Of a stretch of DNA of 64,000 bases, positions 31,948 to 63,600 are shown piece by piece (position 1 is the first letter of the stretch; each line of letters begins with the position of its first letter). This DNA comes from Bacteroidales bacterium (GTDB lineage: Bacteria; Bacteroidota; Bacteroidia; Bacteroidales; VadinHA17). The position numbers and the translations under genes are program-made. The stretch covers positions 8,011 to 72,010 of the forward strand of contig PLNF01000025.1 of the NCBI GenBank assembly GCA_003141715.1, in the 5' to 3' direction. The notes under the pieces were generated by a model. That model was not told the origin of the DNA. It worked only from the letters and a program-made list of their open reading frames with translations, and did no database searches.

Positions 31948-32016
31948 AGTCTGATCATTTAACTTAAATAGAAATAAAATTTGAATCCTTTATTCAAGAA
32001 ATATTTTGCAGGAATA

Positions 32017-33006: not shown

Positions 33007-33076
33007 GTCTATTATCCTATAAATTCCTTATTATTTAGTAATTAAACAAAGCAAAAGAATTATGAATTAAGATTGG

Positions 33077-33997: not shown

Positions 33998-34005
33998 AAA
34001 ATTTA

Positions 34006-36271: not shown

Positions 36272-36291
36272 GTTACAAAAATAATATTAAC

Positions 36292-36981: not shown

Positions 36982-37051
36982 GGTATATTTATTACTTAAT
37001 ATTTAAATAATAAATTGTATAAAAGAGGAACATGAAAAGTGAATCATAATT

Positions 37052-38278: not shown

Positions 38279-38329
38279 ATCTGATTGATTTGATTTATTT
38301 TTTTAGGATAAAACAGAAACGTAAAAATT

Positions 38330-39319
38330 TTAGATTATTTCATGAGTGATTTCAATTGCCCCTAATTTTGGAGAAATTGCGATTTTGAATTCATCAGGCA
38401 GATAACCGCAAGCGATCAAAACAGCTATTTGCTCATTATCAGGAATCTGAAGCAAGGTTCTCAGCTTGTTATCATTTGAATTAGAAGCAGCCCAATTAAG
38501 AAGACAAGCTCCAATCTTATGAAAGTGTAAAGCATAAAGCAAAGTCATACTGAACAAACCTGCATTCAGAAATGGCTCATTTCTCTCATTACCTTGGAAT
38601 AACGATATGTCTGAAGTAATAACCAGCAATGTGTTGGTCAAATGGCCGAATCCTCTATTACCATTCTGAAGTTCAAATACTTGAAGCATTCTCTCCTTGT
38701 TTTTAATTAGATATACTCGCGAAGGTTGTCTGTTGCAGTCTGAAGGCGATCTGTTTGCCAATTCAATACACTGATAAATTGTTTCTATCGGTATTCTTTC
38801 CTTAGAGAAATTTCTTGAACTGTGTCTAGATTTGCAAAATTCTATGAAAGATGATTGATGGTACTTAAAAAACATACTGTTTGAGAAATGGTACTGAGAG
38901 GAACAGGTATCGATTCCGGCTATTGAGGAAATTGTTTTAATCCCTTCGAGTATGTCAGCATCCAAAGAAAAATTATTCAGTTCATGATACTTCAGATATT
39001 CATTAAGAACCTCTACTGAGTGTATGAATATCTGATCTTTGGTATCAAAACCATTTTGTAAATAGAACCTGCATAAGTCAGTTAATTCGTGAATGATTTT
39101 TATTCCAAATCCTAATCTAGTTTCAGGCATTGTAAGTCCTTTTTCAATAATATGATAAAGAATAGTTAAATGTCCTTTTATCTTACCCGGATTATTAAAT
39201 TTATAGTAGGTGTTAGAGTGCAATGTAAATCGTTTAATATCACACCAGAAAGCCAAATTTGATTGTGTAAGAAAAATAACTTTTGCTGGAATAATAAGTT
39301 TTACTAATTTCTTAATCAT
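38330..39319 (-). CDS. nitroreductase-family protein with about 150-aa N-terminal extension
   Basis: RHSSRNFSKERIPIETIYQCIELANRSPSDCNRQPSRVYLI is the nitroreductase FMN-binding N-terminal block. Confidence 0.75.
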   Translation of the reverse strand: MIKKLVKLIIPAKVIFLTQSNLAFWCDIKRFTLHSNTYYKFNNPGKIKGHLTILYHIIEKGLTMPETRLGFGIKIIHELTDLCRFYLQNGFDTKDQIFIHSVEVLNEYLKYHELNNFSLDADILEGIKTISSIAGIDTCSSQYHFSNSMFFKYHQSSFIEFCKSRHSSRNFSKERIPIETIYQCIELANRSPSDCNRQPSRVYLIKNKERMLQVFELQNGNRGFGHLTNTLLVITSDISLFQGNERNEPFLNAGLFSMTLLYALHFHKIGACLLNWAASNSNDNKLRTLLQIPDNEQIAVLIACGYLPDEFKIAISPKLGAIEITHEII

Positions 39320-39326
39320 TTCTTTT

Positions 39327-40865
39327 TCAAATAATCTGGTTTCTAAATTTTAAAACAAAGGTAAAAAAAAGTTCACTAATTCTCTTTTTTTCAACTGATG
39401 TGAACGCAATTAATATCCCAAAAAACGAAAGTGAAATAATACTTATCAAAATCACCAGAGCTGCTCTTGGAATACTATCATCTAATAATAATATGGGAAT
39501 GCATGCAAAGAGCGTAGCCAGGACAGAAGAAATTATAGATCGAAACAAAATTTTAAATATAAAACCTGTGATATTCAATCCTGCAATCTTATGGGTCAGC
39601 CATATTCTTGAACATAATGCAATAAATTCAATGAAGAAAGCACTTATTAAAACAGAATAGGGAGGAAATCCTAATTTTATTAAACAATACGCCAACGGTA
39701 AATTTAAGATAAGCAAAGATCCCATAACTATTTGATAAACTTTAACTTTACCAACTGAGTTTATAGCTACCATCAACCCCGCCGTTAATTGTTGCACTAA
39801 GCTCAAGGAAAGTATCAAGCGGCAAAAGATAACAGAATTCTCGGGGACAGTTTTTAACCATATTTTGAGTATTAAAGGCATCTCAATTATAAATGGAATT
39901 GCAAAGAATGCTAACAAGAAAAATGACAGTTTACATCCTAGCATGGCCAGACGGAGCATTCTTTCACGGTCTCCACTCCCTTCACTTTTTACAATCTGAG
40001 GGTTTAATGCTCTCATCATATTTGACGAAAAAGCACTTAATTGAGCATTGACCTGATTGGCAATTCCATAAGCTGCATTAACTAAGACGCTGAAAGATAG
40101 ATTCAATAGGATCGCCAGACCTTGAGAACTAATCAGATAGCAGAATGAACCATATAAATTCCATCCTGCAAATGCAAACAATTCTTTCAACAAAACAATA
40201 TTGATATCTTTTGTAGAAGGAACCCTGCATTCTTCATATTTTCGAAAACAATAAATACTTTTTATAAAACGGACAAGAATGGTTAGCATTGCTATAAGTA
40301 ATCCATACAGAATTAAATTGTCCACTTTTGTATAGACTACCCATACAGCGATTCCTAACTTCATTAAAGATTCGAAAATTCCTGATAATGCATCAAACAA
40401 CATGTTTTCGTGAGCATTTATTGCAGCGTCGAAAGGAACTGCATTGACTGTAAAGAAGGTGCTTATCACCATAAAATGGAAAACAATTTTTGCAGCGGCG
40501 ATTCGGTTAATAGGAATATTTAGAACCCCATGAAAGAGAAAGATTCCACCAAGTTCCAGTGAAAGTACAATAACTAAACCAATGACCAGATGAAGTAATA
40601 CACTTGAACCGAAAAGGGATTTCAATTTCTGATTGTCGCCTGCTCCCATATAATAGGACAAATACCTTTGAGTTGAAATAGACATTGCACTATTCAGAAA
40701 GGATAGCATCGCTATTACACCAGCGACCAAATTGAAAATCCCATAATCCACAGCTCCAAGAGAATTAAGCACAAGACGAACAGAGAACAATGAAATAATC
40801 ATTGTAATTAACATCTTAACATAAAGAAATCCAGTATTTGTAAAGACTCGTTTTGCGTGTTGCAT
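39327..40865 (-). CDS. wzx: Wzx-type flippase (MOP superfamily polysaccharide biosynthesis protein)
   Basis: About 14 TM helices. Typical length and position. The start lies 6 nt after the PPTase stop. Confidence 0.8.
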   Translation of the reverse strand: MQHAKRVFTNTGFLYVKMLITMIISLFSVRLVLNSLGAVDYGIFNLVAGVIAMLSFLNSAMSISTQRYLSYYMGAGDNQKLKSLFGSSVLLHLVIGLVIVLSLELGGIFLFHGVLNIPINRIAAAKIVFHFMVISTFFTVNAVPFDAAINAHENMLFDALSGIFESLMKLGIAVWVVYTKVDNLILYGLLIAMLTILVRFIKSIYCFRKYEECRVPSTKDINIVLLKELFAFAGWNLYGSFCYLISSQGLAILLNLSFSVLVNAAYGIANQVNAQLSAFSSNMMRALNPQIVKSEGSGDRERMLRLAMLGCKLSFFLLAFFAIPFIIEMPLILKIWLKTVPENSVIFCRLILSLSLVQQLTAGLMVAINSVGKVKVYQIVMGSLLILNLPLAYCLIKLGFPPYSVLISAFFIEFIALCSRIWLTHKIAGLNITGFIFKILFRSIISSVLATLFACIPILLLDDSIPRAALVILISIISLSFFGILIAFTSVEKKRISELFFTFVLKFRNQII

Positions 40866-40871
40866 CAGAAA

Positions 40872-41645
40872 CTATTGATTTATGTATAGATTAATAATCT
40901 CATTATTTATTTGATACAACAGAACTTTTCCTCTTTGCGGTATTGCTACACTCAAGAAATGATTCGACAGGTTGGTCGAATAAATAAAATGGTCATCGAA
41001 TAAACAATCAGCAATCAGATTATCAAACACTTCCCTTCTAATAATATTTTCCAGTACCTCAACTTGCTTTAGATTGTCTATTATTCCAGTTCCAAGAGCC
41101 TTCAATAGAGCTTCTTTTCGTGTCCATAGAAGGAAAAACCTGTCTAAAGCCTCAGCTTTCGATTCTAAAATATACTCTCGCTCACAGGAACTGAAATATG
41201 TTTCTATTATAGAAGTGAAATCAATTATTTTACTTACTTTTTCTAGATCAATTCCTACATAATGGTTATTGGAAACCACAAATGCAAATGCCCCCTTAGT
41301 ATGAGAAATATTAAAGTATAAAGGATTACCCAACAAAGCTGGTTTGTTGTACAATTCGTTAAAGAATCTGACTTCCAAAGGTTCTTTATTTAGCGTCTTT
41401 GAAAGAACCAAACGAAGTAAAGCATGACAGGATATATAAGTCTCCATATCTTCTTCAAAATGAAATCTTTCTGCTCTTAATTGTTCCTCTTTAGTGATAT
41501 AATTTTTAAAATCGGGATATCTTGAATTAAGGTCTTTAGTTTTGGCATAAAACACCTCAACTATATTGGAGTCATCCTCTGAAATCATCTTATATCCTGA
41601 ATCAAAATAATAACGACTACAACTTGATCCTGAAATTATTTGCAT
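40872..41645 (-). CDS. Sfp-type 4'-phosphopantetheinyl transferase
   Basis: FNISHTKG, GIDLEK and FFLLWTRKEALLKALGTG (WxxKEAxxK) motifs. Confidence 0.85.
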   Translation of the reverse strand: MQIISGSSCSRYYFDSGYKMISEDDSNIVEVFYAKTKDLNSRYPDFKNYITKEEQLRAERFHFEEDMETYISCHALLRLVLSKTLNKEPLEVRFFNELYNKPALLGNPLYFNISHTKGAFAFVVSNNHYVGIDLEKVSKIIDFTSIIETYFSSCEREYILESKAEALDRFFLLWTRKEALLKALGTGIIDNLKQVEVLENIIRREVFDNLIADCLFDDHFIYSTNLSNHFLSVAIPQRGKVLLYQINNEIINLYINQ

Positions 41646-41657: not shown

Positions 41658-42584
41658 TTACTCTCTGTATGATTTATTAATATGATTTAAGAGTTTTTCC
41701 AGTTCTATCTGAAGAACGTCAATACTCTTCTTATTTTTAAAAATTGTAAGATGACCCGCTTCAAGAGTAAACATCTTTATCTCATCCGCAAGGGTCTCCC
41801 ATCCCAGGTATTCAAAAGTGGATGTATTCTCTGAAGTTTTAAACAGTAATATATCACCCTTAAATTTATCAGGTTTATATTTTTTTGAAAGCATTTTATA
41901 TGTTTCCCACCTATAAAACTGGTGCCATTTAACCGGAATAGGTTGATTGAATAAAAAACATAATTTACAAATTGATAATTTCACATGCAATTCTATTTTT
42001 ATTTTAATAGGAGATAAAATATTACTTCTTATCAGTTTAAAAAAATTGCTGTTCCATTTTATTGATTCATGAGCCAATGGACTAATGGCATCAATCAGAA
42101 CAAGAAATGGTACATCTTGGCCTAATTTCTGTAATTGAACTGCCATTTCAAAAGCCAATACACCTCCAAAGGAAAAACCACTTAAATAATAAGGTCCCGA
42201 AGGTCTGAGAGATAGTATTTGATTTAAATATGCATTTGCCATTTCTTTAATGTTTTTATAAATAATCTTGCCCCCATTGGAGCCAGGGTGAAAAAAACCA
42301 TATACAGGCTGATCTGAACCGAAGTAATCGCTAATAGTATAATTCCCATGATCGCTATGAACAAGAAATAATGGTATCTTGTTTCCTTCTGTATTAATGG
42401 GCATCATATTAGAATATTCTTTAGGCCAAAAGTGCTTCAATAATCTCCCTTTGTACTTCTTCAAATTATCAATCAGTTCAGGAGTTATATACTCCTCCGG
42501 ACCACTATATCTTAGCTTGCCCATAGAAAAAGAAATTTCAATCTTCTTTTGTATAAGCTCTTCAATAAATTCATTAATTGTCAT
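41658..42584 (-). CDS. thioesterase (alpha/beta hydrolase) with N-terminal TubC-type docking domain
   Basis: GFSFGGVLAFEMA nucleophile elbow (Ser at 42171-42173). C-terminal EAGHLTIF. The first 55 aa or so, INEFIEELIQKKIEISFSMGKLRYSGPEEYITPELIDNLKKYKGRLLKHF, look like a TubC_N docking domain. Confidence 0.85.
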   Translation of the reverse strand: MTINEFIEELIQKKIEISFSMGKLRYSGPEEYITPELIDNLKKYKGRLLKHFWPKEYSNMMPINTEGNKIPLFLVHSDHGNYTISDYFGSDQPVYGFFHPGSNGGKIIYKNIKEMANAYLNQILSLRPSGPYYLSGFSFGGVLAFEMAVQLQKLGQDVPFLVLIDAISPLAHESIKWNSNFFKLIRSNILSPIKIKIELHVKLSICKLCFLFNQPIPVKWHQFYRWETYKMLSKKYKPDKFKGDILLFKTSENTSTFEYLGWETLADEIKMFTLEAGHLTIFKNKKSIDVLQIELEKLLNHINKSYRE

Positions 42585-42956
42585 AGTTCACTTATAAAAA
42601 TATTTGAAGAATTATACCTTCTTTGTTAACATGAATAATTTTACTCGATTTCAATATAGTAATATCAAATATTTCATCCAATTGTTAAGTTTGATTATTT
42701 TTGTCCTTATATACCATACTTTTTTTTCTGAAATAATCGTTATTTCTTTCAAGGATTAATAGTTATTTTTTTTCTGAAGAGATCTTTATAGGATTATCAG
42801 AATTGAGTTTGAGTTTTATAAATTCATCAACTGTTTTCCTATCTTTTTCTAAAAAGGATTGCTCTTATACAGATTCTCAACCATATTTTGCAATAAATGA
42901 CGCTAATTATTTCTTTATCAATTGTCCCATTTCCAAAACAATACATGTTTTATGAA

Positions 42957-45900
42957 TTATAGTTCTCCTGTGACGATTTTAGTATCAGTTTTGTTTTCTT
43001 TATTAACGGATTTGTTTTCAATAGAATTTTTGATATAAATATCTATAGTTTCAGCCAGATCTTTAATCCTAGGGTTGTCAAAGAAAATTCTAAGTCCCAG
43101 TTCAACATTTAATGCTGACTTAATCTTAGAAAAAACCGAAATAGCAAGAAGTGAATTGCCTCCGATGTCAAAAAAATTATCTGTTACTGAGAAATCGTCT
43201 GTTTTTAAAACCTCGTTCCAAATTTTAAAAACTCTATATTCAGTCTGGCTAAGTGTCTTTATTTCCTCATTTTTTCTACTTTCCAGATCCTTTAAATCGA
43301 AAATAAGGGCATTTCTGTCAATCTTACCGTTGATTGTCTTAGGGAATCCATGCATGTATTTATATGCCAACGGCACCATATATGGAGGGAGCTTGTCTCT
43401 TACCCTTTTGATTATCTCTTTTGTTCCCATTTTAAATGATTCAGGCACATTTAAAAAAGCAATCAGCCTGTAATCTCCTTCTTCAACTTTTACAGATTTA
43501 ATAACTGTTTCTATTACCCCGTCTATCTCCGATATGACAGATTCTATCTCCTCCAGCTCTACCCGGAAGCCCCTTATTTTCAATTGATTGTCAATCCTTC
43601 CATGAAACTCAATGTTACCATCCGGAAGCCATTTCGCATAGTCGCCAGTCCGGTAAAGTCTTTCTCCCGGTAATTGCGGATGATCTATGAAACTCTTCTT
43701 ATTCAGGTCATCTCTGTTTATGTATCCTTTTGATAAACCATCGCCTCCGATATATAATTCCCCTATAACTCCAATGGGCTGATAATTCATATTATTATCA
43801 AAAATATAACACGTGGAATTGCTTATGGGTCTACCGATCGGAATATTGTGATCTAAATCTTTTTCAATCAGGTAGGCTGTTGAGAAGGTTGTGTTTTCGG
43901 TAGGCCCGTAACCGTTGATAACCTTCAACCCCGGATTAGCCTTCCTGACTTTGTTTATATGAGGGGCAGATAAAACATCTCCGCCTACAAGCAAATACTT
44001 CAAGTTGCCAAATATATCAGTTCCCGACTCTGCCAGGTGCGTAAATAGAGCAGATGTCAGCCAAAGGATTGTAATATCATTTTTTACAAGCGCTTCTCCT
44101 AATGCTCCCGGATTAAGAATAGTCTCTTTTTCAGCCATAAATAATGACCCTCCATTTAAAAGCGCTCCCCAAATCTCAAATGTCGATGCATCAAATACTA
44201 TTGCACTTGTCAACAAAATTTTATCCTCCGGAGTAATGTCAATATAGTTAGTATTTCGTACAAGCCTGACAATACTATGCTGGCATATCATGCTCCCTTT
44301 TGGATTTCCGGTAGTTCCTGATGTGTACATTATATATCCCAGATCTGATGACCTGTTGATATTCCCGGGGTTTGATACCTCTTCAGTATCAGAACCCGCA
44401 TCGTTCAGGCTTAATTTCGTAACACCATCTAAACAAATGCCAATGCATTTGTCCTGGGCGAGCAGTACTTTACATCCCGAATCCTTAATAATGAAATTGA
44501 TTCTCAGTGAAGGATAATCAGGATCAATAGGCACATAAACTCCTCCGGCTTTCAGAATGCCAAGGATACCCACTATTACATCCAAAGACTTTTCTGCGAG
44601 AATCCCTACCGGTGTATTCCTTCCGACTCCAACCTTCATCAGATTAAGGGCCAATTGATTTGCTTTATAATTTAATTGTTTATAGGTCAGCAATTCTTCT
44701 TTAAAGACCACTGCTGTCTTATCAGGAAATTCATCAACCTGCTCTTCGAACAGCTGGATAATTGTTTTATCTTTTGGATAGGCTGTATGTGTATTGTTAA
44801 AACCATCGATTATAAATTTCTCTCCATCAGAAATCAGAGGAAGTGATTCAATAGCGACATCATAATTTTCGAAAATGTTACGAATAAGAGTAAGAAAGTT
44901 TTCTTTCAGCCTGATTATTGTTTCCGGTTTTAAAATATCAATATTAAATTTAATCTCACCTTGAATTTTATCCCCGCTTTCCCACATATAGAAAATAATA
45001 TCAAAGGGAGTAACATCGTCAGCCAAAGTAATTCTTTCACCTTTAATGTTTCCGAAATCTATTGGTATAATCATATCGTTAAGCCATGACAATGAGACCT
45101 GAAAAATAGGATTTATACCGGAAATCCGATCAGGATTTACAACCTCAACAATTCTCTCAAAAGGGAGTTTTGAATTTAATATTGTATTTCTTACAACATT
45201 CTTTGTATAATTAACATGATCTTTAAACTTATTTTTGGTTTCAATCTTTAATCTGACCACTGCAGTGTTTAAAAATAAGCCAAATATTTTATCAAGGGAA
45301 GGATGAGTTCGACGGTTTGAAACAGGGATACCAATACAAATATCATTCTCCCCGGAATATTTCTGTAACAATACCCCCACTAAAGATACCATAGTGCTAA
45401 AAAGCGTAGAACCCTGGTTTTTACTAAGTTCTTTTAGTTTGAGAGTGTATTCCTTCGAAATTTCAAAAGATTGCCGGAATCCAAACCCTGTTGGATCGTT
45501 TTTCCTGTGATAATCGTAGGGAAATTTTAATTCCGGCTGACACCCTTTCAAATTATCTTTCCAGAATTCAATCAGCTCTTTTTCGTTTTCGTCAGAAAAT
45601 GATCTGTTTTCTACCTGTGCATAATTGTAACTATGAAACTTCAGTGGTTCAGGCTTATAATCAGCATTCAGAATCAGATTATTATATATTGTGCTTAATT
45701 CCTGCACGAAAACCCGGATTGACCATCCATCAAATATTATATGATGAATTGTTGCATGAAAATAATAGTTTGTTTCATCATCCTTTAATAAGTAAAGACG
45801 ATAGAGCGGACCATTTTCAACATCAAAACATCTTCTTGAATCTTTTCCTGCAAAGGAAAGAATCGCCTCTCTTCTTAAATTAACCGGGAAACCGGAAAAA

Positions 45901-46175
45901 TCAATTAATTCAACGGTTACAGGTCCGGGAATTATATCAATATATGGCTCTCCCTCTTTCTGTCTGAATACCGAAAACATAGTATGTTGCCTGTTAAATA
46001 AAAGGCTCATGCTCTTTTCAAAAATATCCAAATTAATTTCGATCTTAAAATGATACGTCAATACCATATTATAGGCAGGATTTGTATTATCCAGCTGTGA
46101 TATTATCCATAACTTTTTTTGATTTGCCATCAATGGCAAACCTCGTTGAACCGATGGATGCGTTTTTTTATTCAT
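42957..46175 (-). CDS. NRPS module C-A-T (A-domain code DAFWLGGTFK, Val-like)
   Basis: C: LPLMANQKKLW and HHIIFDGWS. A: YTSGTTGNPKG, FDAS, NGYGPTENT, YRTGDYAKW, KIRGFRVELEEIE, PKTINGKIDR. T: FFDIGGNSLLAI (Ser at 43152-43154). Approximate domains: C 44860-46130, A 43300-44800, T 43040-43250. Confidence 0.95.
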   Translation of the reverse strand: MNKKTHPSVQRGLPLMANQKKLWIISQLDNTNPAYNMVLTYHFKIEINLDIFEKSMSLLFNRQHTMFSVFRQKEGEPYIDIIPGPVTVELIDFSGFPVNLRREAILSFAGKDSRRCFDVENGPLYRLYLLKDDETNYYFHATIHHIIFDGWSIRVFVQELSTIYNNLILNADYKPEPLKFHSYNYAQVENRSFSDENEKELIEFWKDNLKGCQPELKFPYDYHRKNDPTGFGFRQSFEISKEYTLKLKELSKNQGSTLFSTMVSLVGVLLQKYSGENDICIGIPVSNRRTHPSLDKIFGLFLNTAVVRLKIETKNKFKDHVNYTKNVVRNTILNSKLPFERIVEVVNPDRISGINPIFQVSLSWLNDMIIPIDFGNIKGERITLADDVTPFDIIFYMWESGDKIQGEIKFNIDILKPETIIRLKENFLTLIRNIFENYDVAIESLPLISDGEKFIIDGFNNTHTAYPKDKTIIQLFEEQVDEFPDKTAVVFKEELLTYKQLNYKANQLALNLMKVGVGRNTPVGILAEKSLDVIVGILGILKAGGVYVPIDPDYPSLRINFIIKDSGCKVLLAQDKCIGICLDGVTKLSLNDAGSDTEEVSNPGNINRSSDLGYIMYTSGTTGNPKGSMICQHSIVRLVRNTNYIDITPEDKILLTSAIVFDASTFEIWGALLNGGSLFMAEKETILNPGALGEALVKNDITILWLTSALFTHLAESGTDIFGNLKYLLVGGDVLSAPHINKVRKANPGLKVINGYGPTENTTFSTAYLIEKDLDHNIPIGRPISNSTCYIFDNNMNYQPIGVIGELYIGGDGLSKGYINRDDLNKKSFIDHPQLPGERLYRTGDYAKWLPDGNIEFHGRIDNQLKIRGFRVELEEIESVISEIDGVIETVIKSVKVEEGDYRLIAFLNVPESFKMGTKEIIKRVRDKLPPYMVPLAYKYMHGFPKTINGKIDRNALIFDLKDLESRKNEEIKTLSQTEYRVFKIWNEVLKTDDFSVTDNFFDIGGNSLLAISVFSKIKSALNVELGLRIFFDNPRIKDLAETIDIYIKNSIENKSVNKENKTDTKIVTGEL

Positions 46176-46201: not shown

Positions 46202-49200
46202 CTAAATCTCGCCTATAACTAATTTAGACTCTGGTTTAGTTGGTTTATCCACAGATTTCTGTTTTACAGATTTCTTTACTGAAATATCAATGGCCTCAGC
46301 AAGATCCTTTATCCTCGGGCTGTCAAAGAAAACTCTTAGTCCCAAATCAATATTAAATGCAGATTCAATCTTTGAAAATACAGCTATTGCCAGAAGCGAA
46401 TTGCCACCACTCTCAAAAAAATTGTCTGTAACTGTAATATCTTCAGTCTTTAGTGTTTCGCTCCATATTTTAAAAATTACCTTTTCTGTGGGTGTCAAAG
46501 CTTCTATTTCATCACTTCCTGTTTTTCCCAATTCATTAATTTGAAAAATAAGAGATTTCCTGTCAATTTTTCCGTTACTTGTTTTTGGGAACTCCTTCAT
46601 TATGTTATAAAATGTTGGGATCATATATGAAGGTAGTTTTTCCTTCAGGCGCCTGTTGAGCTCTTTTGTATCGATATTGAAATCATCTGATACGTTAAGA
46701 AATGCCACCAACCGGTGATCATTCTCATCAAATTTATGAACTATTACCACAGCTTCTTTAACATCCTGGACCTGAGTCAGCAAACTTTCAATTTCCCCTG
46801 GTTCTATCCTGAATCCTCTTAACTTGATCTGATTGTCGCTCCTGCCAAAAAGCTCTACATTCCCGTCAATCAGAAATCTACCCAGGTCACCGGTCTTGTA
46901 GATAATCTGTTTATTTTCGAGTGTGATGAATTTTTCTGCAGTCAGATCCGGTCGGTTAATATAACCCTTTGTCACACCCAGACCTCCGATACAGACCTCT
47001 CCAATAACACCAACAGGAAGTTGATTATTATTTTTATCCAGGATATAAATGGAAGTATTATTAACCGGTCTTCCGATAAGAATTGGTGCATCAGGATCTA
47101 TGACCTTAGTATATACAGAATAGACAGTTGTCTCAGTAGGTCCATAGCAATTCCAGAATTCATTAACCTTTGGAAGTATCTGTCGTACAAGAACTGATGT
47201 CAATGCTTCTCCCCCGCACAACGCTTTAAGGTCATCTTTGCCCTGCCATCCGCCTGAAAGCAGAATATTCCAGAATGAAGGAGTTGCCTGAATGACTGTA
47301 ATATTATGCTTTTTAATCAGGTCAGTTAAGGCTGGACCATCTGTTGTCTCGCCGGACTTTGCAATGACTATTGTTGCTCCTGCTGACAAAGGAACAAAAA
47401 GTTCAAAAACAGACATGTCGAAAGATAAAGTTACAACTGCCAGAAGTATGTCATTCTCTTTTATACCAGGCTCCTTCAACATGCTTTCAATCAGGTTTAC
47501 AACTGCAGCGTGATGAACTTTAACTCCTTTAGGTTTACCTGTTGAACCCGATGTGTAAATAGTATATGCATTGGATTTCGGACTCAGAATAAGCTCAGGT
47601 TTCACAGTACTATATTTCCTGATTTTCCCCCGATCTGTATCTATAAAGACAATTGGCGTTTTAAACATTCGGGTTTTCTCCATCAGCGAACTCTGTGTAA
47701 TCAGAGCTCTGGCTCCCGAATCTTCAAACATAAAAGTTATTCTGTCATCAGGAAATGAAGGATCCATGGGCAGATAGCTGCATCCTGCTTTTAATACGCC
47801 AAGTACAGAAATTACCATTTCAACTGAACGTTCAATACATATCCCTATGATGTCTCCCTCAGTTGCCCCGAGTGAGATCAGATAACCGGCAAGCTGATTA
47901 GCCTGATCATTCAACTCTTTGTAAGTCAGACTTGAATCGCCGGATATAACTGCCTTCTTTGATGGGTGAATTACCGACTGCTGCTCAAAGAAACTCTGGA
48001 CCAGACAATCAGTAACCGGTACATTGGTTCTGTTAAATTCTTCAAGTTTAGTTCTATCATTATCTGAGATTATTGATATTTCAGATATTCTCTGGTCAGG
48101 GTTTTCTATTACACTTTTCAACAGGAAGACAAAATTTTCTTTTAACCGGATTATGAATTCCCGATCAAATAAATCTGAATTAAATTCCAGCTCACCCTCA
48201 ACGATTCCATCATTGTCCCATGCATAAAAAGTCATATCAAATGGAGCAACTGTATCTTTAATAAGTATTCTTTCAGGCATTATTCCCTCTAAATTAAGAG
48301 GAGGGCGCGGTGTATTCTGATAGGCAAAAAGAATCTGGGAAATCGGATTCACATTAATTTTTCGTTCAGGCTGCAGGGTTTCAACCAGCTTCTCAAATGG
48401 CAGATCCTGGTGAGCAAGACCCTCAATTGTTATATTCCTTGTATAATGCAAGAGCTCTTTAAAAGTCAGGGAATTATCAAAACGCAAACGTAGGATTATT
48501 GTGTTTACGAATAATCCTATAATCTCTTCTGTATCAGAATTGACCCTGTTGGCAGTTGGAATGCCAATACAAATATCGTTATCACCGGAATATTTATTCA
48601 GAAGCAAGCTAAAACCGGCTAATAATGTCATAAAAACTGTCGAGTTCTCTCTTTGACTTATCTCTCTGATTTTACCAGAGAAATCTAAGGTCATCCTCAA
48701 AGGTTCTCTGCTTCCAAAACCGGTGGGTCTTTTGGTTCTTGAATAACTGAATGGAAAATTAATTTCTGCAGGATGATCTTTAAGTTGTTTCTTCCAGTAA
48801 TCAATTGAAGTTTTGAAAGAATCTTCGGTAATATTTGATTCCTGCCAGTTAGCTATATCATAATATTGATATTTAAGAGGTATAAGGTCAATTTCACGGT
48901 TGTTAAGCAGGTCATTATATATCTGACGTAATTCGCCGGCAAAGATACCCCACGACCACCCGTCAAAAACCATATGCTGAACAGTCATATGAAAAACAGA
49001 CTCATTATCACTGATTTTTACCAGGTAGAAGCGGAACAAAGGACCATTTTCTATGTCAAAGATATTTCTTGATTCGCCTGTAAAAAAATCCTGTATTTTT
49101 TGTTCGACTTCTTCAGAAGCATAAGAGCTATAGTCCAGAAAAGTAATAGGCAAGGTTTCAAAATTATTAATCAGACAATATGGTTCTCCTTCATGTGATT

Positions 49201-55200: not shown

Positions 55201-56068
55201 TCTCACCTTCGATTTTAAACAGGAGAGTACTTCCGTTAAACTGATGTACTGAAGGTCTTTTAAACTTAGCAGGCAGATTAAGGGTATGAGATCTGCCATG
55301 AAGTTGGTTCACCCAGTAATCTATCTGACTTTCCCCTTTTTCACTATTTAAGAATTCTATCTGATCGAAAATAAAATTGTTATAGTCTGAGGCAGGAGAG
55401 ATTTTTAAAATATTTGTGTTTTGAATTAAAGAATCATAAATATTTATAAACTCATTCAACAAATTCCGCAGTGAAATTGCATCACAGGTAATATGGTGAA
55501 AATTGAAACTCAGGATAGCTGAATCGGATTTATTGACAATAGTTAATCTTAAGAGAGGGCCATTCTCAAGGTCAAATGGCAGCCTATATTTCTTATTTAA
55601 CAAGATCTTTATTTGCTCATCACTAAGTTTTAATCCATCGATCTGTTCGATAGCCGGACTAATTTTGTCTAAAACTATCTGACAAACAGTATTATCGATT
55701 CCCGGAAGAACAGCAAATATTGTCCTTAAAGACTGGTGTTGTTCTATGAGAGATGAAAGAGTAATCCTCAAGGCATCAATATTTAAAGTACCCTGTACCT
55801 CTGCTGCCAATGAAATATTATATGAAACATTTGAGGGATTTACAGCCCCGATAAACCATATTGCTTTTTGATTATGTGCAAGAGGCAATACTTTAATCTT
55901 TTTTGACTTAGTATTCCTTAAAATCTCTTTGAAAAAGTCCTTGTTTGACTTTAAAAAATCAGTTTTTGAGGAATCCAGTTCTTTCTCCTCAACTCTGTAC
56001 TTTAATACATCATCATCTATCCAGAGCTCTAAGTGCTTTGGAAAGAAAGAATCAAAATCTTTTTTCAT
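46202..56068 (-). CDS. hybrid NRPS-PKS megasynthase: dock-C-FkbH-T-KS-AT-T-C-A-T
   Basis: See the domain features below. The ATG at 56066-56068 forms an ATGA overlap with the stop of the upstream MT-ACP gene. The track's TTG at 56086 is less likely. Confidence 0.95.
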   Translation of the reverse strand: MKKDFDSFFPKHLELWIDDDVLKYRVEEKELDSSKTDFLKSNKDFFKEILRNTKSKKIKVLPLAHNQKAIWFIGAVNPSNVSYNISLAAEVQGTLNIDALRITLSSLIEQHQSLRTIFAVLPGIDNTVCQIVLDKISPAIEQIDGLKLSDEQIKILLNKKYRLPFDLENGPLLRLTIVNKSDSAILSFNFHHITCDAISLRNLLNEFINIYDSLIQNTNILKISPASDYNNFIFDQIEFLNSEKGESQIDYWVNQLHGRSHTLNLPAKFKRPSVHQFNGSTLLFKIEGEMFHNLWSIAKNNNVTFNVLLFSAFEFFISKISGQGDFCVGLPAAARTNKIFEDIFGYLINMLPLACSIRSQESFIDFLNENKIRLYESLENQDIPFPIIVEKISPKRDLSRTPIFQVIFNYLNKKSLGCLLHFLGDSETTEYSSWGSVFIKPYKIFDQEGQVDLTLEIVDDESKLLCALKFNSDLFDNDSINLFKDEFLRILDLIINDLSFKPSWLSDENPLKPEKPLLNINITGTFTVEPVEPYLEFWLKKFGVTPLITFPGYNQVFSQLLNPGSEFNSNISGYNILLIRFEDWIKDKNSEGSISDFSKKVDEIEDAFSVAIQLNTQGKYILAFCPPSPGILKNPILSEIIAEAENRLTSILKSKSNILVLNSGELLDTYDIHDYYEELGEEIGHIPFSDNFFISLSTIIARKIHLSFSLPFKAIAVDCDNTLWKGVVAEEGPTGVKVGPGEKALQEFLIEQNKSGILICLCSKNREEDVFEVFDKNDQMVLKREHLSFYKINWNPKSENLIQLAKDINIGLDSFVFIDDNPMECAEVRNNTPEVLTIQLPEDGINIKQLNNSWIFDKLRITDEDRKRSEKYREEAVRINFRSSFKTYKDFITGLNLKVEIKPFQDGNISRISQLTYRTNQFNFTTLRKSESEIKNLSFDKNVDCFQVTLSDRFGDYGLTGVIIVNKSSGYSVETFLLSCRVLGKGVEHFLISFLGEKARLNNSVYLTVSFRKTDKNTPAENFINSNFGDFGHYSNEIQIFNIPVERAIGFTFDPDSNISNQEFSEDEKTKDSVGLTKNQNRNDFYYLILEKFLTLDKIIAELNKNLVIRSASDLVPDQRYKQTEKNVMSVWQQILKSDNFNNTDNFFDIGGHSVLIPQIVIKLFRQFNIQINIVDIFQFPTVRELAAFIDGESKTEKPVPDISTNSDDNRRAVKDIAIIGMTGRFSGVKSTEDYWKIISSGKEAITYYTKEELLKKGVDKALLENDNYVLANGNLENADQFDSSFFGVTPREADFMDPQHRVFLESCYEALENAGYTSEKYPGEIGVFAGCGMNNYLAKNLFQHPESLRSIGEFQTIINNNSDYLTTRVSYKLNLTGPSIDIQTACSTSLVAIHIACQNLISRSCDMALAGGVFIQIPHAEGYMYEAGGIFSPDGHCKPFDSEANGTLFGEGSGVVVLKRLEDAVSDCDTILGVIKGTAINNDGSNKVGYMAPSINGQAAVVRKAIAVANIAPDTISYIETHGTGTKLGDPIEVNALNSVFRNASARRNYCALGSVKANIGHLDAAAGVAGVIKVVLMLNNKKLVPLLNFKKPNPELPLNDTPFYLNTSLSEWTTTRGPRRAGISSFGIGGTNAHCILEEAPVRVKEASGKKYHLLPVTAKTPDALKNLKQSIYHHVLDTDQDIADISFTLQQGRSHYKHRSLLICKTESDKSIPLLMKDTEITGIRELFNPRVVFMFTGQGSQYIGMTRDLYNEFSLFRDIIDKADVFLKANFSIEILKYILQDNDDSLQNEINQTSVAQPLLFTVQYAIARLLEEFGLKPDVLIGHSIGEYAAACISEIFDFEDALTLVAHRGKLMQEQKPGAMLSVQLSCNELSPFVSEKVNLSLKNAPDLNVLSGEFQDIEEAEKKIIAQYPDIHLSRLKTSHAFHSYMMEPVLGPFSEILKKIKFGESRIPFISNLTGTWAVNGELSNAQYWTDQIRATVNFVDGIQELLKEANVYFIEVGPGNMLATLLSQYDTSGKRINISSTTRHPKKKLNDIPVFLKALGQAWISGVNINWDNYYKGEKRYRVPLPSYPFERKRHWIDPETPFNYFNESSERIQEIKPVLSGTDSDEQKYDGKYLSFHDRPSMDEEYVEPKTDIEKSIAGIWENLLGIKGIGINDDFFYLGGHSLLASQIITRISEKFHVRLPLESLFESSTISGLIRKIESEKPVKQDTPDIISMSPDGRLPVSFDQKRLWILNQIDRNNPAYNIPFTYRLKGNLNVEIFIKSLKLLLDRQTILKSSIQSHEGEPYCLINNFETLPITFLDYSSYASEEVEQKIQDFFTGESRNIFDIENGPLFRFYLVKISDNESVFHMTVQHMVFDGWSWGIFAGELRQIYNDLLNNREIDLIPLKYQYYDIANWQESNITEDSFKTSIDYWKKQLKDHPAEINFPFSYSRTKRPTGFGSREPLRMTLDFSGKIREISQRENSTVFMTLLAGFSLLLNKYSGDNDICIGIPTANRVNSDTEEIIGLFVNTIILRLRFDNSLTFKELLHYTRNITIEGLAHQDLPFEKLVETLQPERKINVNPISQILFAYQNTPRPPLNLEGIMPERILIKDTVAPFDMTFYAWDNDGIVEGELEFNSDLFDREFIIRLKENFVFLLKSVIENPDQRISEISIISDNDRTKLEEFNRTNVPVTDCLVQSFFEQQSVIHPSKKAVISGDSSLTYKELNDQANQLAGYLISLGATEGDIIGICIERSVEMVISVLGVLKAGCSYLPMDPSFPDDRITFMFEDSGARALITQSSLMEKTRMFKTPIVFIDTDRGKIRKYSTVKPELILSPKSNAYTIYTSGSTGKPKGVKVHHAAVVNLIESMLKEPGIKENDILLAVVTLSFDMSVFELFVPLSAGATIVIAKSGETTDGPALTDLIKKHNITVIQATPSFWNILLSGGWQGKDDLKALCGGEALTSVLVRQILPKVNEFWNCYGPTETTVYSVYTKVIDPDAPILIGRPVNNTSIYILDKNNNQLPVGVIGEVCIGGLGVTKGYINRPDLTAEKFITLENKQIIYKTGDLGRFLIDGNVELFGRSDNQIKLRGFRIEPGEIESLLTQVQDVKEAVVIVHKFDENDHRLVAFLNVSDDFNIDTKELNRRLKEKLPSYMIPTFYNIMKEFPKTSNGKIDRKSLIFQINELGKTGSDEIEALTPTEKVIFKIWSETLKTEDITVTDNFFESGGNSLLAIAVFSKIESAFNIDLGLRVFFDSPRIKDLAEAIDISVKKSVKQKSVDKPTKPESKLVIGEI
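46290..46500 (-). other. megasynthase carrier domain T3
   Basis: FFESGGNSLLAI, Ser at 46397-46399. Confidence 0.85.
46560..48040 (-). other. megasynthase adenylation domain (code DMFQLGCVYK by hand alignment)
   Basis: YTSGSTGKPKG, FDMSVFE, NCYGPTETT, YKTGDLGRF, KLRGFRIEPGEIE, PKTSNGKIDR. Confidence 0.9.
48060..49380 (-). other. megasynthase domain C2 (LCL-like condensation)
   Basis: LPVSFDQKRLWILNQ and QHMVFDGWSWG. Confidence 0.85.
49440..49640 (-). other. megasynthase carrier domain T2
   Basis: FFYLGGHSLLAS, Ser at 49547-49549. Follows the AT directly, with no KR/DH/ER between. Confidence 0.85.
50000..50870 (-). other. megasynthase acyltransferase (AT), malonyl-type motifs
   Basis: FMFTGQGSQY. 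GHSIGEYAA (Ser at 50579-50581). SHAFHS (HAFH, not YASH). Confidence 0.9.
51141..52423 (-). other. megasynthase ketosynthase (KS), catalytic C-H-H intact
   Basis: DIAIIGMTGRF. DIQTACSTSL (Cys at 51908-51910). ETHGTGTKLGDPIE. KANIGHLDAAAG. GGTNAHCILEE. Confidence 0.95.
52500..52700 (-). other. megasynthase carrier domain T1
   Basis: FFDIGGHSVL, Ser codon at 52607-52609. Confidence 0.85.
52980..54515 (-). other. megasynthase FkbH-like domain (HAD-IIIC phosphatase + glyceryl-S-Cys transfer region)
   Basis: DxDxT motif AVDCDNTLWKG (DCDNT at 53903-53917). LLSCRVLGKGVEHF with Cys at 53129-53131. Collinear with the stand-alone FkbH at 58835-60577. Confidence 0.85.
54590..55895 (-). other. megasynthase domain C1 (condensation, variant active site HHITCDAIS)
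   Basis: KVLPLAHNQKAIWF at about 55857-55895. HHITCD at 55481-55498 (Ala replaces the usual Gly of HHxxxDG). Confidence 0.8.
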
Positions 56069-57300
56069 AGTTTGCCCTCTAACCAATGACTGCCTGAATT
56101 ATTATCCGGACTTTTAGTCATATCTGTAGAGTTGGTGTTAAGTTTTTCTAAAATGAGTTTTATGATATCATTTATTGAAAATTTCTGCAGAATATCTGAA
56201 ATACTTATACCGGTTTGAAAATCAGATTTGACAATACTGCTTAACTCTGCAGCCGCAATAGAATCAATATCAAATAAATTTAGCTTTGTATCCGGGTTTA
56301 AATCCAAATTTTTCTGTTCCAATATCGAACTGACTCTTTTAATAAAATATGAGCTTAATTTAGCTTCCTGTTCTGAAGAAGTCAGTGACTTTATATCATC
56401 AATGTTCAGAGACAGGGTGTTTAATATTTGTAAATCATTTTCATCTACCTTAATATTTTCAACCACCGGGTTAAGACTCTTCATGCCACTAATCACAAAA
56501 AGTTGTCTGAAAATAACATGATCAGGCTGCTGAAACAATTTATACCAATTCTCAATTAAAGATTCGAGCGTTTCCTTTTTTAAGAATCCTTCTTTGACAA
56601 GGCTCTTGGATATATTGACATTTTCTGCTTTTACAAATGCTTTGTCACCTTCAAGGCCACTATGTACGCAAATGATTTCAATGTTTATGTTATCGAATTT
56701 TTCTTTTTTCAGAAGTCCCGGCAATTGTCTGCCGATTAATGGATTGCCTCCCTCACTAAATCTGGAATTGATATAAGCTGTGTACATCTCATCCAATTCC
56801 GGAATAGCCGGATAAGTTAATAAGTGGTAAGCAAAATCATTACTTATCAGGACAAATTTCCCTCCTGGTTTGAGAATCCTTCTGACTTCAGCTATTGCTT
56901 TGGCAGGTTCCTTAAGATGCTCAAAGACGAGGCGGGCAATAGCAAAATCATAATAATTTTCGGCCAATTCAGTCTCATATATTGAAGCATGTTTTACTTC
57001 AAACAGCTTTTTACCATTAATTGTAGAATTTTCCTTAAGTACCTCAACCAAAAAAGGATTTATCTCAAGGGCAGTAGCCGTACAATTGGGCAAATCTCTT
57101 ACAATATTGCTTATCAGAAATCCTGGTCCGCTGCCACATTCGACAATTTTCATCCCATCTTTTAGTCCAATCTTTTTATAAAGCTCCAATTCCCTTTGAT
57201 AAAAAAGCTCAACCTGATATTTTAACCGGGTTACTTCGGAGTCCTTATTTTCAGAAAAACTTTCTAAAATATAAGATCCATCTATTTTGTTCAAATTCAT
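56065..57300 (-). CDS. class I SAM-dependent methyltransferase fused to a C-terminal carrier (ACP-like) domain
   Basis: Motif I is IVECGSGPGFL, followed by RILKPGGKFVLIS. The C-terminal 80 aa carry LNLFDIDSIAAAEL (Ser at 56260-56262). Confidence 0.75.
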   Translation of the reverse strand: MNLNKIDGSYILESFSENKDSEVTRLKYQVELFYQRELELYKKIGLKDGMKIVECGSGPGFLISNIVRDLPNCTATALEINPFLVEVLKENSTINGKKLFEVKHASIYETELAENYYDFAIARLVFEHLKEPAKAIAEVRRILKPGGKFVLISNDFAYHLLTYPAIPELDEMYTAYINSRFSEGGNPLIGRQLPGLLKKEKFDNINIEIICVHSGLEGDKAFVKAENVNISKSLVKEGFLKKETLESLIENWYKLFQQPDHVIFRQLFVISGMKSLNPVVENIKVDENDLQILNTLSLNIDDIKSLTSSEQEAKLSSYFIKRVSSILEQKNLDLNPDTKLNLFDIDSIAAAELSSIVKSDFQTGISISDILQKFSINDIIKLILEKLNTNSTDMTKSPDNNSGSHWLEGKL

Positions 57301-60638: not shown

Positions 60639-63600
60639 TTAAATTTCTCCTTCAATAATTTTAGGATTTGACAGAGTTGTTTTATTTGCAGAAATATTTT
60701 TGACTTTATTCTGACGTGCAATATCAATTGCCTCAGCTAAATCCTTTATTCTTGGACTATCAAAGAAAACTCTTAATCCCCACTCAAGATTAAATGCAGA
60801 TTCTATCTTTGAAAAGACTGATATAGCTAAAAGAGAATTTCCTCCTATTTCAAAGAAATTATCTGTTATTGATATTTCTTCAGTCTTTAGAGCTTCACTC
60901 CAGAATTTATGAATTATATTTTCTGTAGGTGTAAGAGTTTTACTTTCAACAATTTTCCTGAATTCCGGCTCTTTTACATCAAAAATACGTGATTTCCTGT
61001 CAATTTTCCCGTTAATAGTTTTAGGGAACCCGTGCATGAATTTGTATGCTGATGGCACCATATAAGAAGGCAATTTTGCTTTTATAAGTCTGCCAATTTC
61101 TTTTGGATCCATATAAGATGATTCCGGAACATTCAAAAAAGCTACCAGCATATAATCTCCAACTTCAACTTTTGCGGGCTTGACTACTGTTTCTATAATA
61201 CCATCTATCTCTGAGATGACTGATTCAATCTCCTCCAACTCAACCCTGAATCCTCTTATTTTAAATTGATTATCAACCCTGCCATGAAATTCGATGTTTC
61301 CGTCCGGTAACCACTTAGCGCGATCACCTGTCCTGTAGAGTCTTTCTGCAGGATTATGAGGATTAGCTATATAACTAGTTTTATTTAAATCTTCTCTGTT
61401 CAAATATCCCATTGAAAGACCATCGCCTCCAACGTATAACTCCCCGATAACTCCTATCGGCTGATAATTCATGTTACTATCAAAAATATAGGCAGTGGAA
61501 TTGCTTACTGGTTTGCCAATTGGAATGTTATTCTCAAAATCTCGGTCAATCAAATAGGTTGTTGAAAATGTTGTATTCTCTGTAGGTCCGTAGCCGTTTA
61601 TAACTTTCAGCTTTGGATTATCTTTCCGCACCCTATTTATGTGAGAGGTTGACAGAACGTCCCCTCCTACAAGCAAATACTTTAGTTTGCTGAATATATC
61701 TGCGTGTGACTCTGAAATCTGCGTGAATAACGATGATGACAACCAAAGAATGGTAATATTATTCTTATGAAGTTCTTCACCCAGGGTTTTCGGATCGAGA
61801 ATAGTCTCCTTCTCTTCAAGATACAGGGTACCTCCGTTCAACAGAGCACCCCATATTTCAAAAGTTGTTGCATCAAATACTATTGCCCCTGTAAGGAGTA
61901 TTCTATCGGCCGATGTAATTTCAATATAGTTTGTATTCCGAACAAGTCTGACTACACCGTACTGAGGTATCAAACTCCCCTTGGGAACTCCTGTAGTCCC
62001 TGACGTGTACATGATATAGGCAAGATCTGAAGACTTGTTTCTCGTCTTAGGGTTTGATTTTTCTTCAGCATAAGAACCAGGATTGTTCAGGTTTAATCTA
62101 GTAACATTATCTAAATATATGCTCATGCTTTTGTCCTGAACGAGGAGTACTTTACATCCTGAGTCCTTAATAATGAAATTGATTCTCATTGAAGGGTAAT
62201 CTGGATCAATGGGCACATAAACTCCGCCTGCTTTTAGAATACCAAGGATCCCCACTATCACAGCTAAAGACTTTTCTGCCAGAATTCCCACAGGTGTATT
62301 TCTTCCGACTCCAATCTTAATTAGATTATTGGCTAATTGATTTGCTTTATAATTTAATTGTTTATAGGTCAATGATTCTTCTTTAAAAACCAAGGCTGTT
62401 TTATCCGGATAAATAGAAACCTGCTCTTCGAATAACTGGATAATTGTTTTATCTTTTGGATAGTCAATATGAGTATTGTTAAAACCATCGATCTTTACTT
62501 TCTCCTCATCAGTAATTAAAGGAAGCGATTCAAGAGCAGCATCAGATTTTTCAACCAGATTATTTACTAAACTCAAGAAGTTGTTCCTAAACTGGAGTAT
62601 AGTTTCATGTTTCAATAAATCGGTAGAATATTCAATCTCACCTTCAATTATTCCTTCACTTTCCCAGAGATATATTGTAATATCAAATGGAGTAGTTCTA
62701 AGTTTTTCAGATACCTTAATGCTTCTGATACAGTCCAGCTTCAATGGAACGTTCAGATTATTCTGCCAGACAAAACCTATCTGAAATATTGGATTAACGC
62801 TGGGAAAACGTTCCGGATTCACAATTTCCACGATAGTTTCAAACGGGAGTTCCTTATGAGCTATTGCATTTAAAGCAACTTGATCAGTTTGGTGAATTAG
62901 TTTTCTAAATGTAAGCTCTTTGTTGAATTTAAGCCGTACAACTATCGTATTGACAAACATTCCAAAAACATTCTCAAGTTTTGAATGAGAACGGGAAGCC
63001 ACCGGTAATCCAATGTTAATATCAACTTCGCCTGAATATTTATGTATCTGAATCCCAAATGTGCTCAACATTGTGGAAAACAGTGAAATACCCTCTTCCT
63101 TACTTATTTCTCTGAGTTTATCTGATAATTCCTGTGAAAATCTAATGACTTCGTAACCACCTTTTCCTGTCGGCTGACTCCTTCGTTGAAAATCATATGG
63201 AAAATTAAGAATCGGGGACGCCTCTTTTAAATTGTCTTTCCAGAATTCAATTAATTCATTCTCAACACTAAAATTTGAATAGCTATTTTCCCAATGAGCA
63301 TAATCATATTGTTGAAATTCAACTTTTTCCAGATCGATCTCTTTCCTTTCTAACAAATTGTTATAGATTTTATTAAGATCCTTAACAAATACACCCCATG
63401 ACCAACCATCAAAAATTATATGATGAATACTAAAATGGAAATAATATTCATTGATACTAGTCATAATAAGGTACAAACGATACAATGGACCATTTCTCAG
63501 ATCGAAGGCCTTTTCAGAATCTGCATTAAGGATCTCATTTACTTTCTTTTCTTTCTCATTTTCTGGCAGTCCTGAATAATCAATAAATTCAAGATTAACT

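Follow-up and report, generated by a model that had tools for sequence, protein, structure and literature searches.

A docking-domain thioesterase and a surplus of carrier tails in an NRPS/PKS locus of an uncultured Bacteroidota

Introduction

Docking between a short linear motif (SLiM) at the C-terminal tail of one subunit and a β-hairpin docking domain (bHD) at the N-terminus of another is well described for nonribosomal peptide synthetases (NRPSs) and polyketide synthases (PKSs). The survey of Kosol et al. (2019), as summarised in a review (PMC9113145), covers more than 1400 tail/docking-domain pairs, lists bHD domains on thioesterase (TE) domains and includes cases in which one SLiM recruits more than one partner. 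In bHD-condensation (C) and bHD-cyclization (Cy) proteins the linkers are flexible and ~20 aa long (PMC9113145). The rhabdopeptide system contains two tails and three docking domains that bind promiscuously, with R24, Y27 and E28 of Kj12C contacting E1567, G1566 and R1565 of the Kj12B tail LRGEI (PMC6195595). Here we analyse a 64,000-nucleotide stretch of contig PLNF01000025.1 (hereafter the window), in which an uncultured Bacteroidota carries, on the minus strand, an NRPS/PKS lipopeptide/polyketide locus with a stand-alone TE that begins with a bHD.

The locus encodes, in order of transcription, an NRPS (NRPS1), a protein combining a methyltransferase and an acyl carrier protein (MT-ACP), a megasynthase, a single-module NRPS (NRPS3) and the TE. 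In the best explanation, to which we assign a probability of about 0.75, the TE is a split-off release enzyme that docks through its bHD on carrier tails, and MT-ACP and the megasynthase form a separate, second docking pair.

Results

The thioesterase and its docking domain

The N-terminus of the TE is a genuine TubC-type (bHD) docking domain. This had been proposed in a preliminary description of the stretch, whose quoted translation is correct and whose four sequence observations all stand at the positions it gave. Residues 3-52 match the Pfam family TubC_N (PF18563) with 35.2 bits (E 1.3e-8, whole protein) against a cut-off of 26, or with 38.9 bits when aa 1-69 are searched alone. The best sequence match in the PDB is the bHD of AerJ (8aqq, E 6e-4), and Kj12B-NDD is also matched. 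In the AlphaFold2 (AF2) model, which has a confidence score (pLDDT) of 92.3 overall and of 87-95 in the bHD region, DSSP assigns helices at residues 3-12, 35-43 and 45-51 and strands at residues 16-20 and 23-27, giving a predicted fold of α-β-β-α-α topology. Across 44 homologs, K23, Y26, G28 and P29 of the TE bHD are nearly invariant, and alignment to Kj12B-NDD places K23, Y26 and S27 at the Kj12C positions R24, Y27 and E28.

The catalytic core follows. Residues 95-169 match the Pfam family Thioesterase (PF00975, E 7e-17), the GxSxG motif reads GFSFGG, and the triad S138, D165 and H278 is invariant in the 44 homologs. When the AF2 model was searched with Foldseek, the top 50 PDB matches were all cis chain-terminating TEs (AB3403, Pks13, NocB, EntF, fengycin, surfactin), with no type II TE among these 50. 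Outside the bHD-TE family, the nearest sequence relatives (at most 38% identity) are likewise cis TE domains, which end synthetases of 1260-3600 aa in Bacteroidota and other phyla. Unlike TEs in the canonical cis type I position, the TE of the window is not fused to the last carrier and forms a separate open reading frame (ORF) of 308 aa. Because its structural and sequence relatives are cis TEs, and because Pfam domain calls found no other release domain in the cluster, we interpret the 308-aa protein as a type I-like release TE, most likely one that became detached from its carrier and now associates with it non-covalently.

Between the bHD and the TE core (TE aa ~49-65, window 42390-42440) lies a linker of ~8 residues that is modelled at high confidence and is nearly invariant (WPxE..MPIN), the near-invariant residues being W53, P54, E56, M61, P62, I63 and N64. 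A linker of this kind may fix the docking domain rigidly to the TE.

Docking-domain thioesterases in other genomes

A protein search with the TE, at a threshold of E<=1e-5, returned 246 matching clusters. Of the 120 listed, almost all combine PF18563 and PF00975, and the few among them with a named source come from Bacteroidota or Bacteroidales metagenome-assembled genomes (MAGs). A genome scan found 457 TE relatives. Among the best of them, about 20 from Bacteroidales/Bacteroidota MAGs are docking-domain TEs of full length, and so is one from a Fibrobacteres MAG.

Every carrier or synthetase encoded just upstream of a bHD-TE in these loci ends in Φ-x-G-E-[IL], Φ being a hydrophobic residue, or in G-D-I in one locus. 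The TE-adjacent tails comprise RVTGEI, KIITGEL, NIVSGEL, RMVDGEI, NLVSGEI, VIIKGEI and KIIIGEL, and further KIIKGEL, KVIKGEI, KIITGEI, KLIEGEI, IIKGEI and IISGDI. In several loci the upstream synthetase gene overlaps the bHD-TE gene. The comparison thus lends strong support to the earlier proposal that the TE is recruited in trans by a carrier tail, since the upstream carriers are tailed and K23 and Y26 are nearly invariant. A gene for a 4'-phosphopantetheinyl transferase (PPTase) follows the bHD-TE gene in nearly all loci (L005-L008, most of L010-L025 and L094-L096, in our numbering). In two of these, L095 (7226-9511) and L096 (7557-9676), a small Por_Secre_tail protein of the type IX secretion system (T9SS) and an unannotated protein of 541-596 aa are encoded between the last synthetase and the bHD-TE.

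Carrier tails and the carrier-plus-tail cassette

All three NRPS proteins of the window, NRPS1, the megasynthase and NRPS3, end in the shared tails that the preliminary description had noticed (KIIEGEI, KLVIGEI and KIVTGEL; Table 1). These three follow Φ-x-G-E-Φ and are of the TE type; a fourth donor tail, HWLEGKL, ends the MT-ACP protein. A C-terminal G[EQK][ILV] occurs in 4 of 92 ORFs of at least 80 aa in a six-frame translation of the window and in 17 of 865 ORFs in 24 related loci, in every case at the end of a carrier protein. Domains, tails and their conservation are observed directly in these sequences.

The likeness extends beyond the tail into the carrier that bears it. Compared pairwise, the terminal cassettes (carrier plus tail) of NRPS1, the megasynthase and NRPS3 show 62-68% identity. 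Their identity to the terminal cassettes of related bHD-TE loci, most of these cassettes being TE-adjacent, is 36-68% (mostly 50-68%), and that to the internal carriers of the same proteins only 31-40%. NRPS3 as a whole is 62% identical to module 2 of NRPS1 over its entire length, tail included (blastp). The glutamate at position -4 of the NRPS1 tail might have placed this tail with the megasynthase type; we rejected that assignment, as the TE-adjacent tail KLIEGEI of L025 also has a glutamate there and the NRPS1 carrier cassette is of the TE type.

Mapped onto the Kj12C/Kj12B complex, the tails and the two docking domains of the window would pair at three positions. The equivalent of Kj12C R24, predicted to face tail position -2, is the nearly invariant K23 in the TE and V, I or K at position 21 in the megasynthase; the tail residue is E in nearly all TE-type tails and D in one. 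The equivalent of Y27, Y26 in the TE (nearly invariant) and Y24 in the megasynthase (invariant), would face the invariant G at -3. The equivalent of E28, the variable S27 in the TE and an invariant K or R at position 25 in the megasynthase, would face position -4, which in MT-ACP tails is invariably E.

The megasynthase N-terminus and its probable MT-ACP partner

The megasynthase begins with the sequence MKKDFDSFFPKHLELWIDDDVLKYRVEEKELDSSKTDFLKSNKDFFKEIL, which the preliminary description had related to the N-terminus of the TE. When seven orthologous N-termini were combined into a profile and compared with the PDB, the AerJ bHD (8aqq) ranked first (E 0.02); hhalign aligns the N-terminal profile in register with that of the TE bHD (E 9e-4, probability 23%). 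The AF2 model contains strands at residues 13-18 and 21-26 and helices at 33-41 and 43-53, the first helix being only vestigial. Its best Foldseek matches are all bHDs (AerJ, Kj12A/B/C, Bamb_5915 and EpoB), with weak E-values of at least 0.2; the match to AerJ has a Foldseek probability of 0.99, a root-mean-square deviation of 1.2 Å and 24% identity over 41 aligned columns. With moderate confidence, drawn from profiles and models, we regard this segment as a docking domain that has diverged and whose first helix is shortened. A word-indexed protein search with the 84-aa N-terminus found two proteins only, and an exhaustive phmmer search with aa 1-520 was swamped by giant NRPSs with multiple C domains and gave one useful true ortholog representative (P0125).

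The genes for MT-ACP and the megasynthase share 4 nt, the stop of the one overlapping the start of the other (called at 11555-12790 and from 12787 on the parent scaffold, L001). In five orthologous metagenomic loci (L089-L093) the MT-ACP ortholog always immediately precedes a megasynthase in which the bHD-like N-terminus is likewise conserved, and the MT-ACP tail reads WLEGEV, WLEGEL, LLEGEL, FLEGEL or WLEGQL. On account of this gene overlap and of the conservation of both elements in the five loci, the MT-ACP tail is, judging by sequence, most likely the dedicated partner of the megasynthase bHD. A relative of the α/β hydrolase that is encoded directly upstream of MT-ACP in the window also occurs in that place in the orthologous loci L090 and L092.

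More donors than acceptors

The cluster contains four tails and two bHDs. A third bHD was not found in the window, the mixed docking-domain hidden Markov model (HMM) finding those of the TE and the megasynthase only. NRPS3, as noted in the preliminary description, has no N-terminal docking domain: ten residues precede its C domain, and there is no in-frame space for one. NRPS1 also lacks one, its full-length product of 2119 aa (C-A-T-C-A-T, with adenylation, A, and thiolation, T, domains) having a C domain right at its start. The full NRPS1 was obtained from a 128-kb ENA metagenome scaffold (L001), to which the window is identical, with 0 mismatches over 15.4 kb.

The surplus lies on the donor side, and a simpler relative points to its origin. 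In L091 the order is MT-ACP (LLEGEL), megasynthase (KIIKGEI) and bHD-TE, so that two donors meet two acceptors one-to-one; compared with this locus, the window has in addition NRPS1 (with FkbH, ACP and glyoxalase) and NRPS3, both tailed and both without a bHD. A like excess of TE-type tails is seen in two other genomes. Two NRPSs that follow one another in L022 end in KVVKGEI and KVIKGEI, the second beginning directly with a C domain, and in L096 a PKS-NRPS of 4189 aa ends in FVSGEI and a bHD-less C-A-T subunit in IISGDI. The preliminary description had set three donor tails against two acceptors. Donors do outnumber acceptors, but the tails number four and the megasynthase bHD is most likely reserved for MT-ACP; the actual mismatch is thus most likely one of three TE-type donors for one TE acceptor, alongside one dedicated MT-ACP/megasynthase pair.

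The genes for FkbH, ACP, the glyoxalase-like protein and NRPS1 (58205-60727 and 60639-64000) are missing from L090 and L091; there the genes before the hydrolase or MT-ACP are of the T9SS/OmpA type. This upstream part of the locus looks like a later addition.

Organisation of the locus

The features of the locus are collected in Table 1. The TTG start listed for NRPS1 at 63986 is an artefact of the window edge: the frame runs off the window and opens with the last residues of an internal carrier (…NSLLAIRLINKIRE…). In the spacer between NRPS3 and the TE, a scan for promoters and terminators, which does not cover Bacteroidota promoters, gave nothing above shuffled expectation, and no plasmid match was found.

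Table 1. Features of the docking-domain thioesterase locus, in order of transcription (positions in the window)
Feature	Position	Strand	Remarks
NRPS1	60639 to beyond 64000	-	C-terminal 1115 aa in window; Pfam; first in transcription order
NRPS1 C-terminal tail	60642..60662	-	KIIEGEI-COOH; TE-type
FkbH, stand-alone	58835-60727	-	
ACP (carrier protein)	58606-58854	-	
Glyoxalase-like protein	58205-58588	-	
Alpha/beta hydrolase	57351-58172	-	DLH / Abhydrolase_2 / Peptidase_S9-like; hydrophobic N-terminal segment
MT-ACP protein	56065-57300	-	411 aa; Pfam methyltransferase + PP-binding
MT-ACP C-terminal tail	56068..56088	-	HWLEGKL-COOH; megasynthase-type; fourth donor
Megasynthase	46202-56068	-	3288 aa from ATG at 56068; bHD-like, C, FkbH-like, T, ketosynthase (KS), acyltransferase (AT), T, C, A, T, tail; Pfam + gene call
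Divergent bHD-like domain of megasynthase	55901..56068	-	aa 1-56; short alpha1; predicted contact positions V21, Y24, R25
Megasynthase C-terminal tail	46205..46225	-	KLVIGEI-COOH; TE-type
NRPS3	42957-46175	-	Single C-A-T module; Pfam
NRPS3 C-terminal tail (SLiM)	42960..42980	-	KIVTGEL-COOH; TE-type
Spacer NRPS3-TE	42585-42956		372 nt; AT-rich; non-coding
Thioesterase (TE)	41658-42584	-	308 aa; bHD + type I-like TE
bHD (TubC_N) of TE	42420..42584	-	aa 1-55; predicted contact residues K23, Y26, S27
PPTase	40872-41645	-	Pfam ACPS + AASDHPPT_N; downstream of TE

Within the megasynthase, a HAD/NIF-phosphatase-like region (aa ~500-1120, 52709-54568) with the DxDxT motif AVDCDNTLW lies after the first C domain and before the first carrier. 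It points to an FkbH-like domain that would load a glyceryl unit where an adenylation domain would otherwise stand. The resulting order of the first module (bHD, C, FkbH-like, T) suggests in turn ester or amide formation onto a glycerate-derived unit.

Downstream of the TE and PPTase genes lies a polysaccharide-biosynthesis locus (window 26680-41645 with the PPTase) that encodes flippase-like, nitroreductase, pyruvyl transferase, DUF1919, glycosyltransferase (GT1/GT2/GT4), deacetylase and FnlA-like proteins and epimerases. Synteny of the TE-PPTase pair with the polysaccharide locus is similar in other Bacteroidales (L005, L007 and L094-L096); the product of the NRPS/PKS genes may be linked with a surface polysaccharide or made together with one.

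Discussion

From these observations we infer, conditionally, how the contacts, the release chemistry and the use of several carriers might be arranged. The N-terminal bHD of the TE would bind the extreme C-terminal tail of a carrier, basic-Φ-Φ-x-G-E-Φ-COOH, which would follow the carrier domain through a disordered linker of ~25 aa. By analogy with Kj12C/Kj12B, the last five tail residues would add a strand beside β2 of the bHD, E(-2) pairing with K23, G(-3) packing on Y26 and two hydrophobic residues being buried. Docking of this kind would keep the phosphopantetheine arm of the carrier near Ser138, so that the product could be off-loaded. In the second pair, the MT-ACP tail (Φ-L-E-G-x-L) would dock on the divergent megasynthase bHD, with K/R25 facing E(-4). 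As NRPS1 and NRPS3 lack a bHD, docking through bHDs would fix two junctions only, namely MT-ACP to megasynthase, and release. The default partner of the TE would be NRPS3, the module encoded last; the NRPS1 and megasynthase tails could probably receive it as well, and off-loading from several carriers would be plausible.

Several observations weigh against this account. In L007, L008/L016, L015, L020, L024 and L026 a bHD-TE occurs, mostly with an adjacent PPTase, and no tail-bearing carrier is encoded within 10 kb on either side; the partner synthetases of these orphan loci may be encoded elsewhere in the genome. Every tail-bHD contact is a prediction by analogy with the solved Kj12C/Kj12B complex, and tail position -4 and bHD position 27 covary too weakly for a call: among 13 pairs, one is complementary (K/E) and none sets like charges against each other. 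The gap of 372 nt between NRPS3 and the TE differs from the gene overlap in several other loci, and with no bHD on NRPS3, the hand-over from the megasynthase or NRPS1 to NRPS3 is not accounted for by bHD docking. The megasynthase N-terminus matches no Pfam family even at E<=10 and is not matched by an HMM built from 44 TE-type bHDs (--max), and its AF2 model, made from a three-sequence alignment, has a mean pLDDT of 61 (~70-78 in residues 11-60). Its relationship to the TE N-terminus hence stands on profile and fold, but the link to TubC_N is much weaker than the preliminary description implied: the profile search it had suggested for both N-termini succeeds for the TE (35.2 bits against 26) and gives no match for the megasynthase. 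Finally, a 2026 study shows that depsipeptide histone deacetylase (HDAC)-inhibitor systems can do without the SLiM in vivo, their bHD holding on to the carrier domain itself (PMC13324335); the tail may accordingly be less important here than assumed, and the conserved carrier cassette may, by analogy, be just as important.

The alternatives differ in what they make of the TE and of its surplus partners. As an editing (type II) enzyme, the TE would be a proofreader recruited by tails to clear mis-primed or stalled carriers, rather than to release the product. The protein does stand alone, a PPTase gene is almost always adjacent, and some loci hold the TE-PPTase pair with no synthetase nearby; fold and nearest relatives nevertheless speak against such a role, the top 50 structural matches being chain-terminating TE domains with no type II enzyme and the closest relatives beyond the family being cis terminal TE domains. 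With no other release domain found in the cluster, and with tails on terminal carriers only when an editing enzyme must reach internal ones, we reject it as very unlikely. If, then, the TE is a release enzyme, it may serve a linear line of MT-ACP, megasynthase, NRPS3 and TE, into which NRPS1 feeds somewhere, and use the NRPS3 tail only. The tails of NRPS1 and the megasynthase would be relics of the duplication of a C-A-T-tail module and of an ancestral megasynthase-to-TE junction, with no docking role now. Such a history would fit the 62% end-to-end identity of NRPS3 with module 2 of NRPS1, tail included, the last place of NRPS3 in gene order, and the L091 arrangement, in which the megasynthase tail faces the TE directly, so that the corresponding tail in the window could be a leftover after the insertion of NRPS3. 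Yet the non-terminal tails keep the full Φ-x-G-E-Φ-COOH and the conserved carrier cassette, and L022 and L096 repeat the succession of tailed subunit, bHD-less C-A-T subunit and bHD-TE, which argues for retention over decay; we see a purely linear line as a minority possibility.

Equally tentative is the opposite extreme, in which the single bHD-TE would dock on all three TE-type tails and off-load each carrier. Products of several lengths or parallel lines (NRPS1 alone; MT-ACP with the megasynthase; the latter with NRPS3) would result, in ratios set by tail affinities as in the rhabdopeptides. All three tails and cassettes correspond to those that immediately precede bHD-TE genes in other loci, the window has no third bHD and NRPS1 and NRPS3 have none of their own; moreover, tail promiscuity and unequal tail/bHD numbers are known from Kj12ABC (PMC6195595), and one SLiM with several partners is reported from the 2019 survey (PMC9113145). 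Against this, the argument proceeds from sequence rather than function, early release would waste intermediates, and the NRPS3 C domain is an elongation-type paralog of the second C domain of NRPS1 that needs an upstream donor, which favours a connected line. Wider still, and rather doubtful in our view, is a family-wide version in which the cassette would end every synthetase subunit with a single bHD-TE as its sole partner, perhaps extending to synthetases from other parts of the genome, a possibility to which the orphan TE-PPTase pairs point; the locus would then make products of different length in ratios set by tail affinity, the order of bHD-less subunits being set otherwise. Docking of a split-off release TE on carrier tails, next to a separate MT-ACP/megasynthase pair, remains the reading we prefer.

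If docking works in this way, a natural release TE would have been made portable by a 55-aa domain and a tag of 5-7 residues, a part of the kind that synthetic biologists want for re-wiring NRPS/PKS lines. With hundreds of members, ranging from simple one-to-one arrangements to loci with extra tailed, bHD-less modules, the Bacteroidota family would offer comparable variants for the control of release and subunit order. For annotation, the gain is a fourth docking donor (MT-ACP) and a divergent bHD that Pfam misses.

Comparison with known systems

The SLiM/bHD pairs TubB-TubC, EpoA-EpoB and Bamb_5917-Bamb_5915 (Richter 2008; Dowling 2016; Kosol 2019, as reviewed in PMC9113145) resemble the window in having a ~55-aa N-terminal domain on a catalytic domain and a short C-terminal carrier tail as its partner, binding being predicted for the window. 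The enacyloxin pair (Bamb_5917-Bamb_5915) is like it in a further respect, as its bHD recruits a stand-alone chain-release enzyme to the terminal carrier; the docked enzyme there is a condensation domain, whereas that of the window is a Ser-Asp-His thioesterase. The linkers of bHD-C and bHD-Cy proteins, flexible and ~20 aa long, contrast with the nearly invariant linker of ~8 aa in the window TE. No experimentally characterised bHD-TE was found in the literature searched.

Kj12ABC (Hacker et al. 2018, PMC6195595; PDB 6EWS, 6EWT, 6EWU and 6EWV) offers a parallel for the tails, L-R-G-E-I there corresponding to I-E-G-E-I, V-I-G-E-I and V-T-G-E-L in the window, and for the contact positions on β2, R24/Y27/E28 there and K23/Y26/S27 in the TE. 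Tails and bHDs are unequal in number in both, two to three in Kj12ABC, where docking is promiscuous, and four to two in the window. In Kj12ABC, however, every subunit has a bHD and the modules work iteratively, whereas NRPS1 and NRPS3 have none and the excess lies on the donor side. The second Kj12 salt bridge, which joins E28 and the R at -4, has no counterpart in the TE (S27) and would be reversed in the megasynthase bHD, where K/R25 faces E at -4.

AerJ (PDB 8AQQ/8AQR) shares with the TE a bHD on a trans-acting enzyme rather than on an elongation module, but it is a tailoring halogenase of a cyanobacterial pathway, not a release enzyme, and sequence identity is low. With the cis terminal TEs (AB3403, EntF, SrfA-C, fengycin, NocB and Pks13) the window TE has in common the α/β-hydrolase fold with lid, the GxSxG motif and the Ser-Asp-His triad; in place of their covalent carrier-to-TE linker it has a non-covalent tail-bHD pair.

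The bHD-TE design is common in Bacteroidota, and its docking system has already been described, so that the concept is not new. The novelty that the preliminary description implied for the docking mismatch was accordingly overstated, bHDs on TEs and multi-partner SLiMs (PMC9113145) and unequal numbers of tails and bHDs (PMC6195595) having been reported before. Particular to the system of the window are the docked Ser-Asp-His TE, the short near-invariant linker, the donor-side excess with bHD-less subunits and the conserved TE-PPTase pair.

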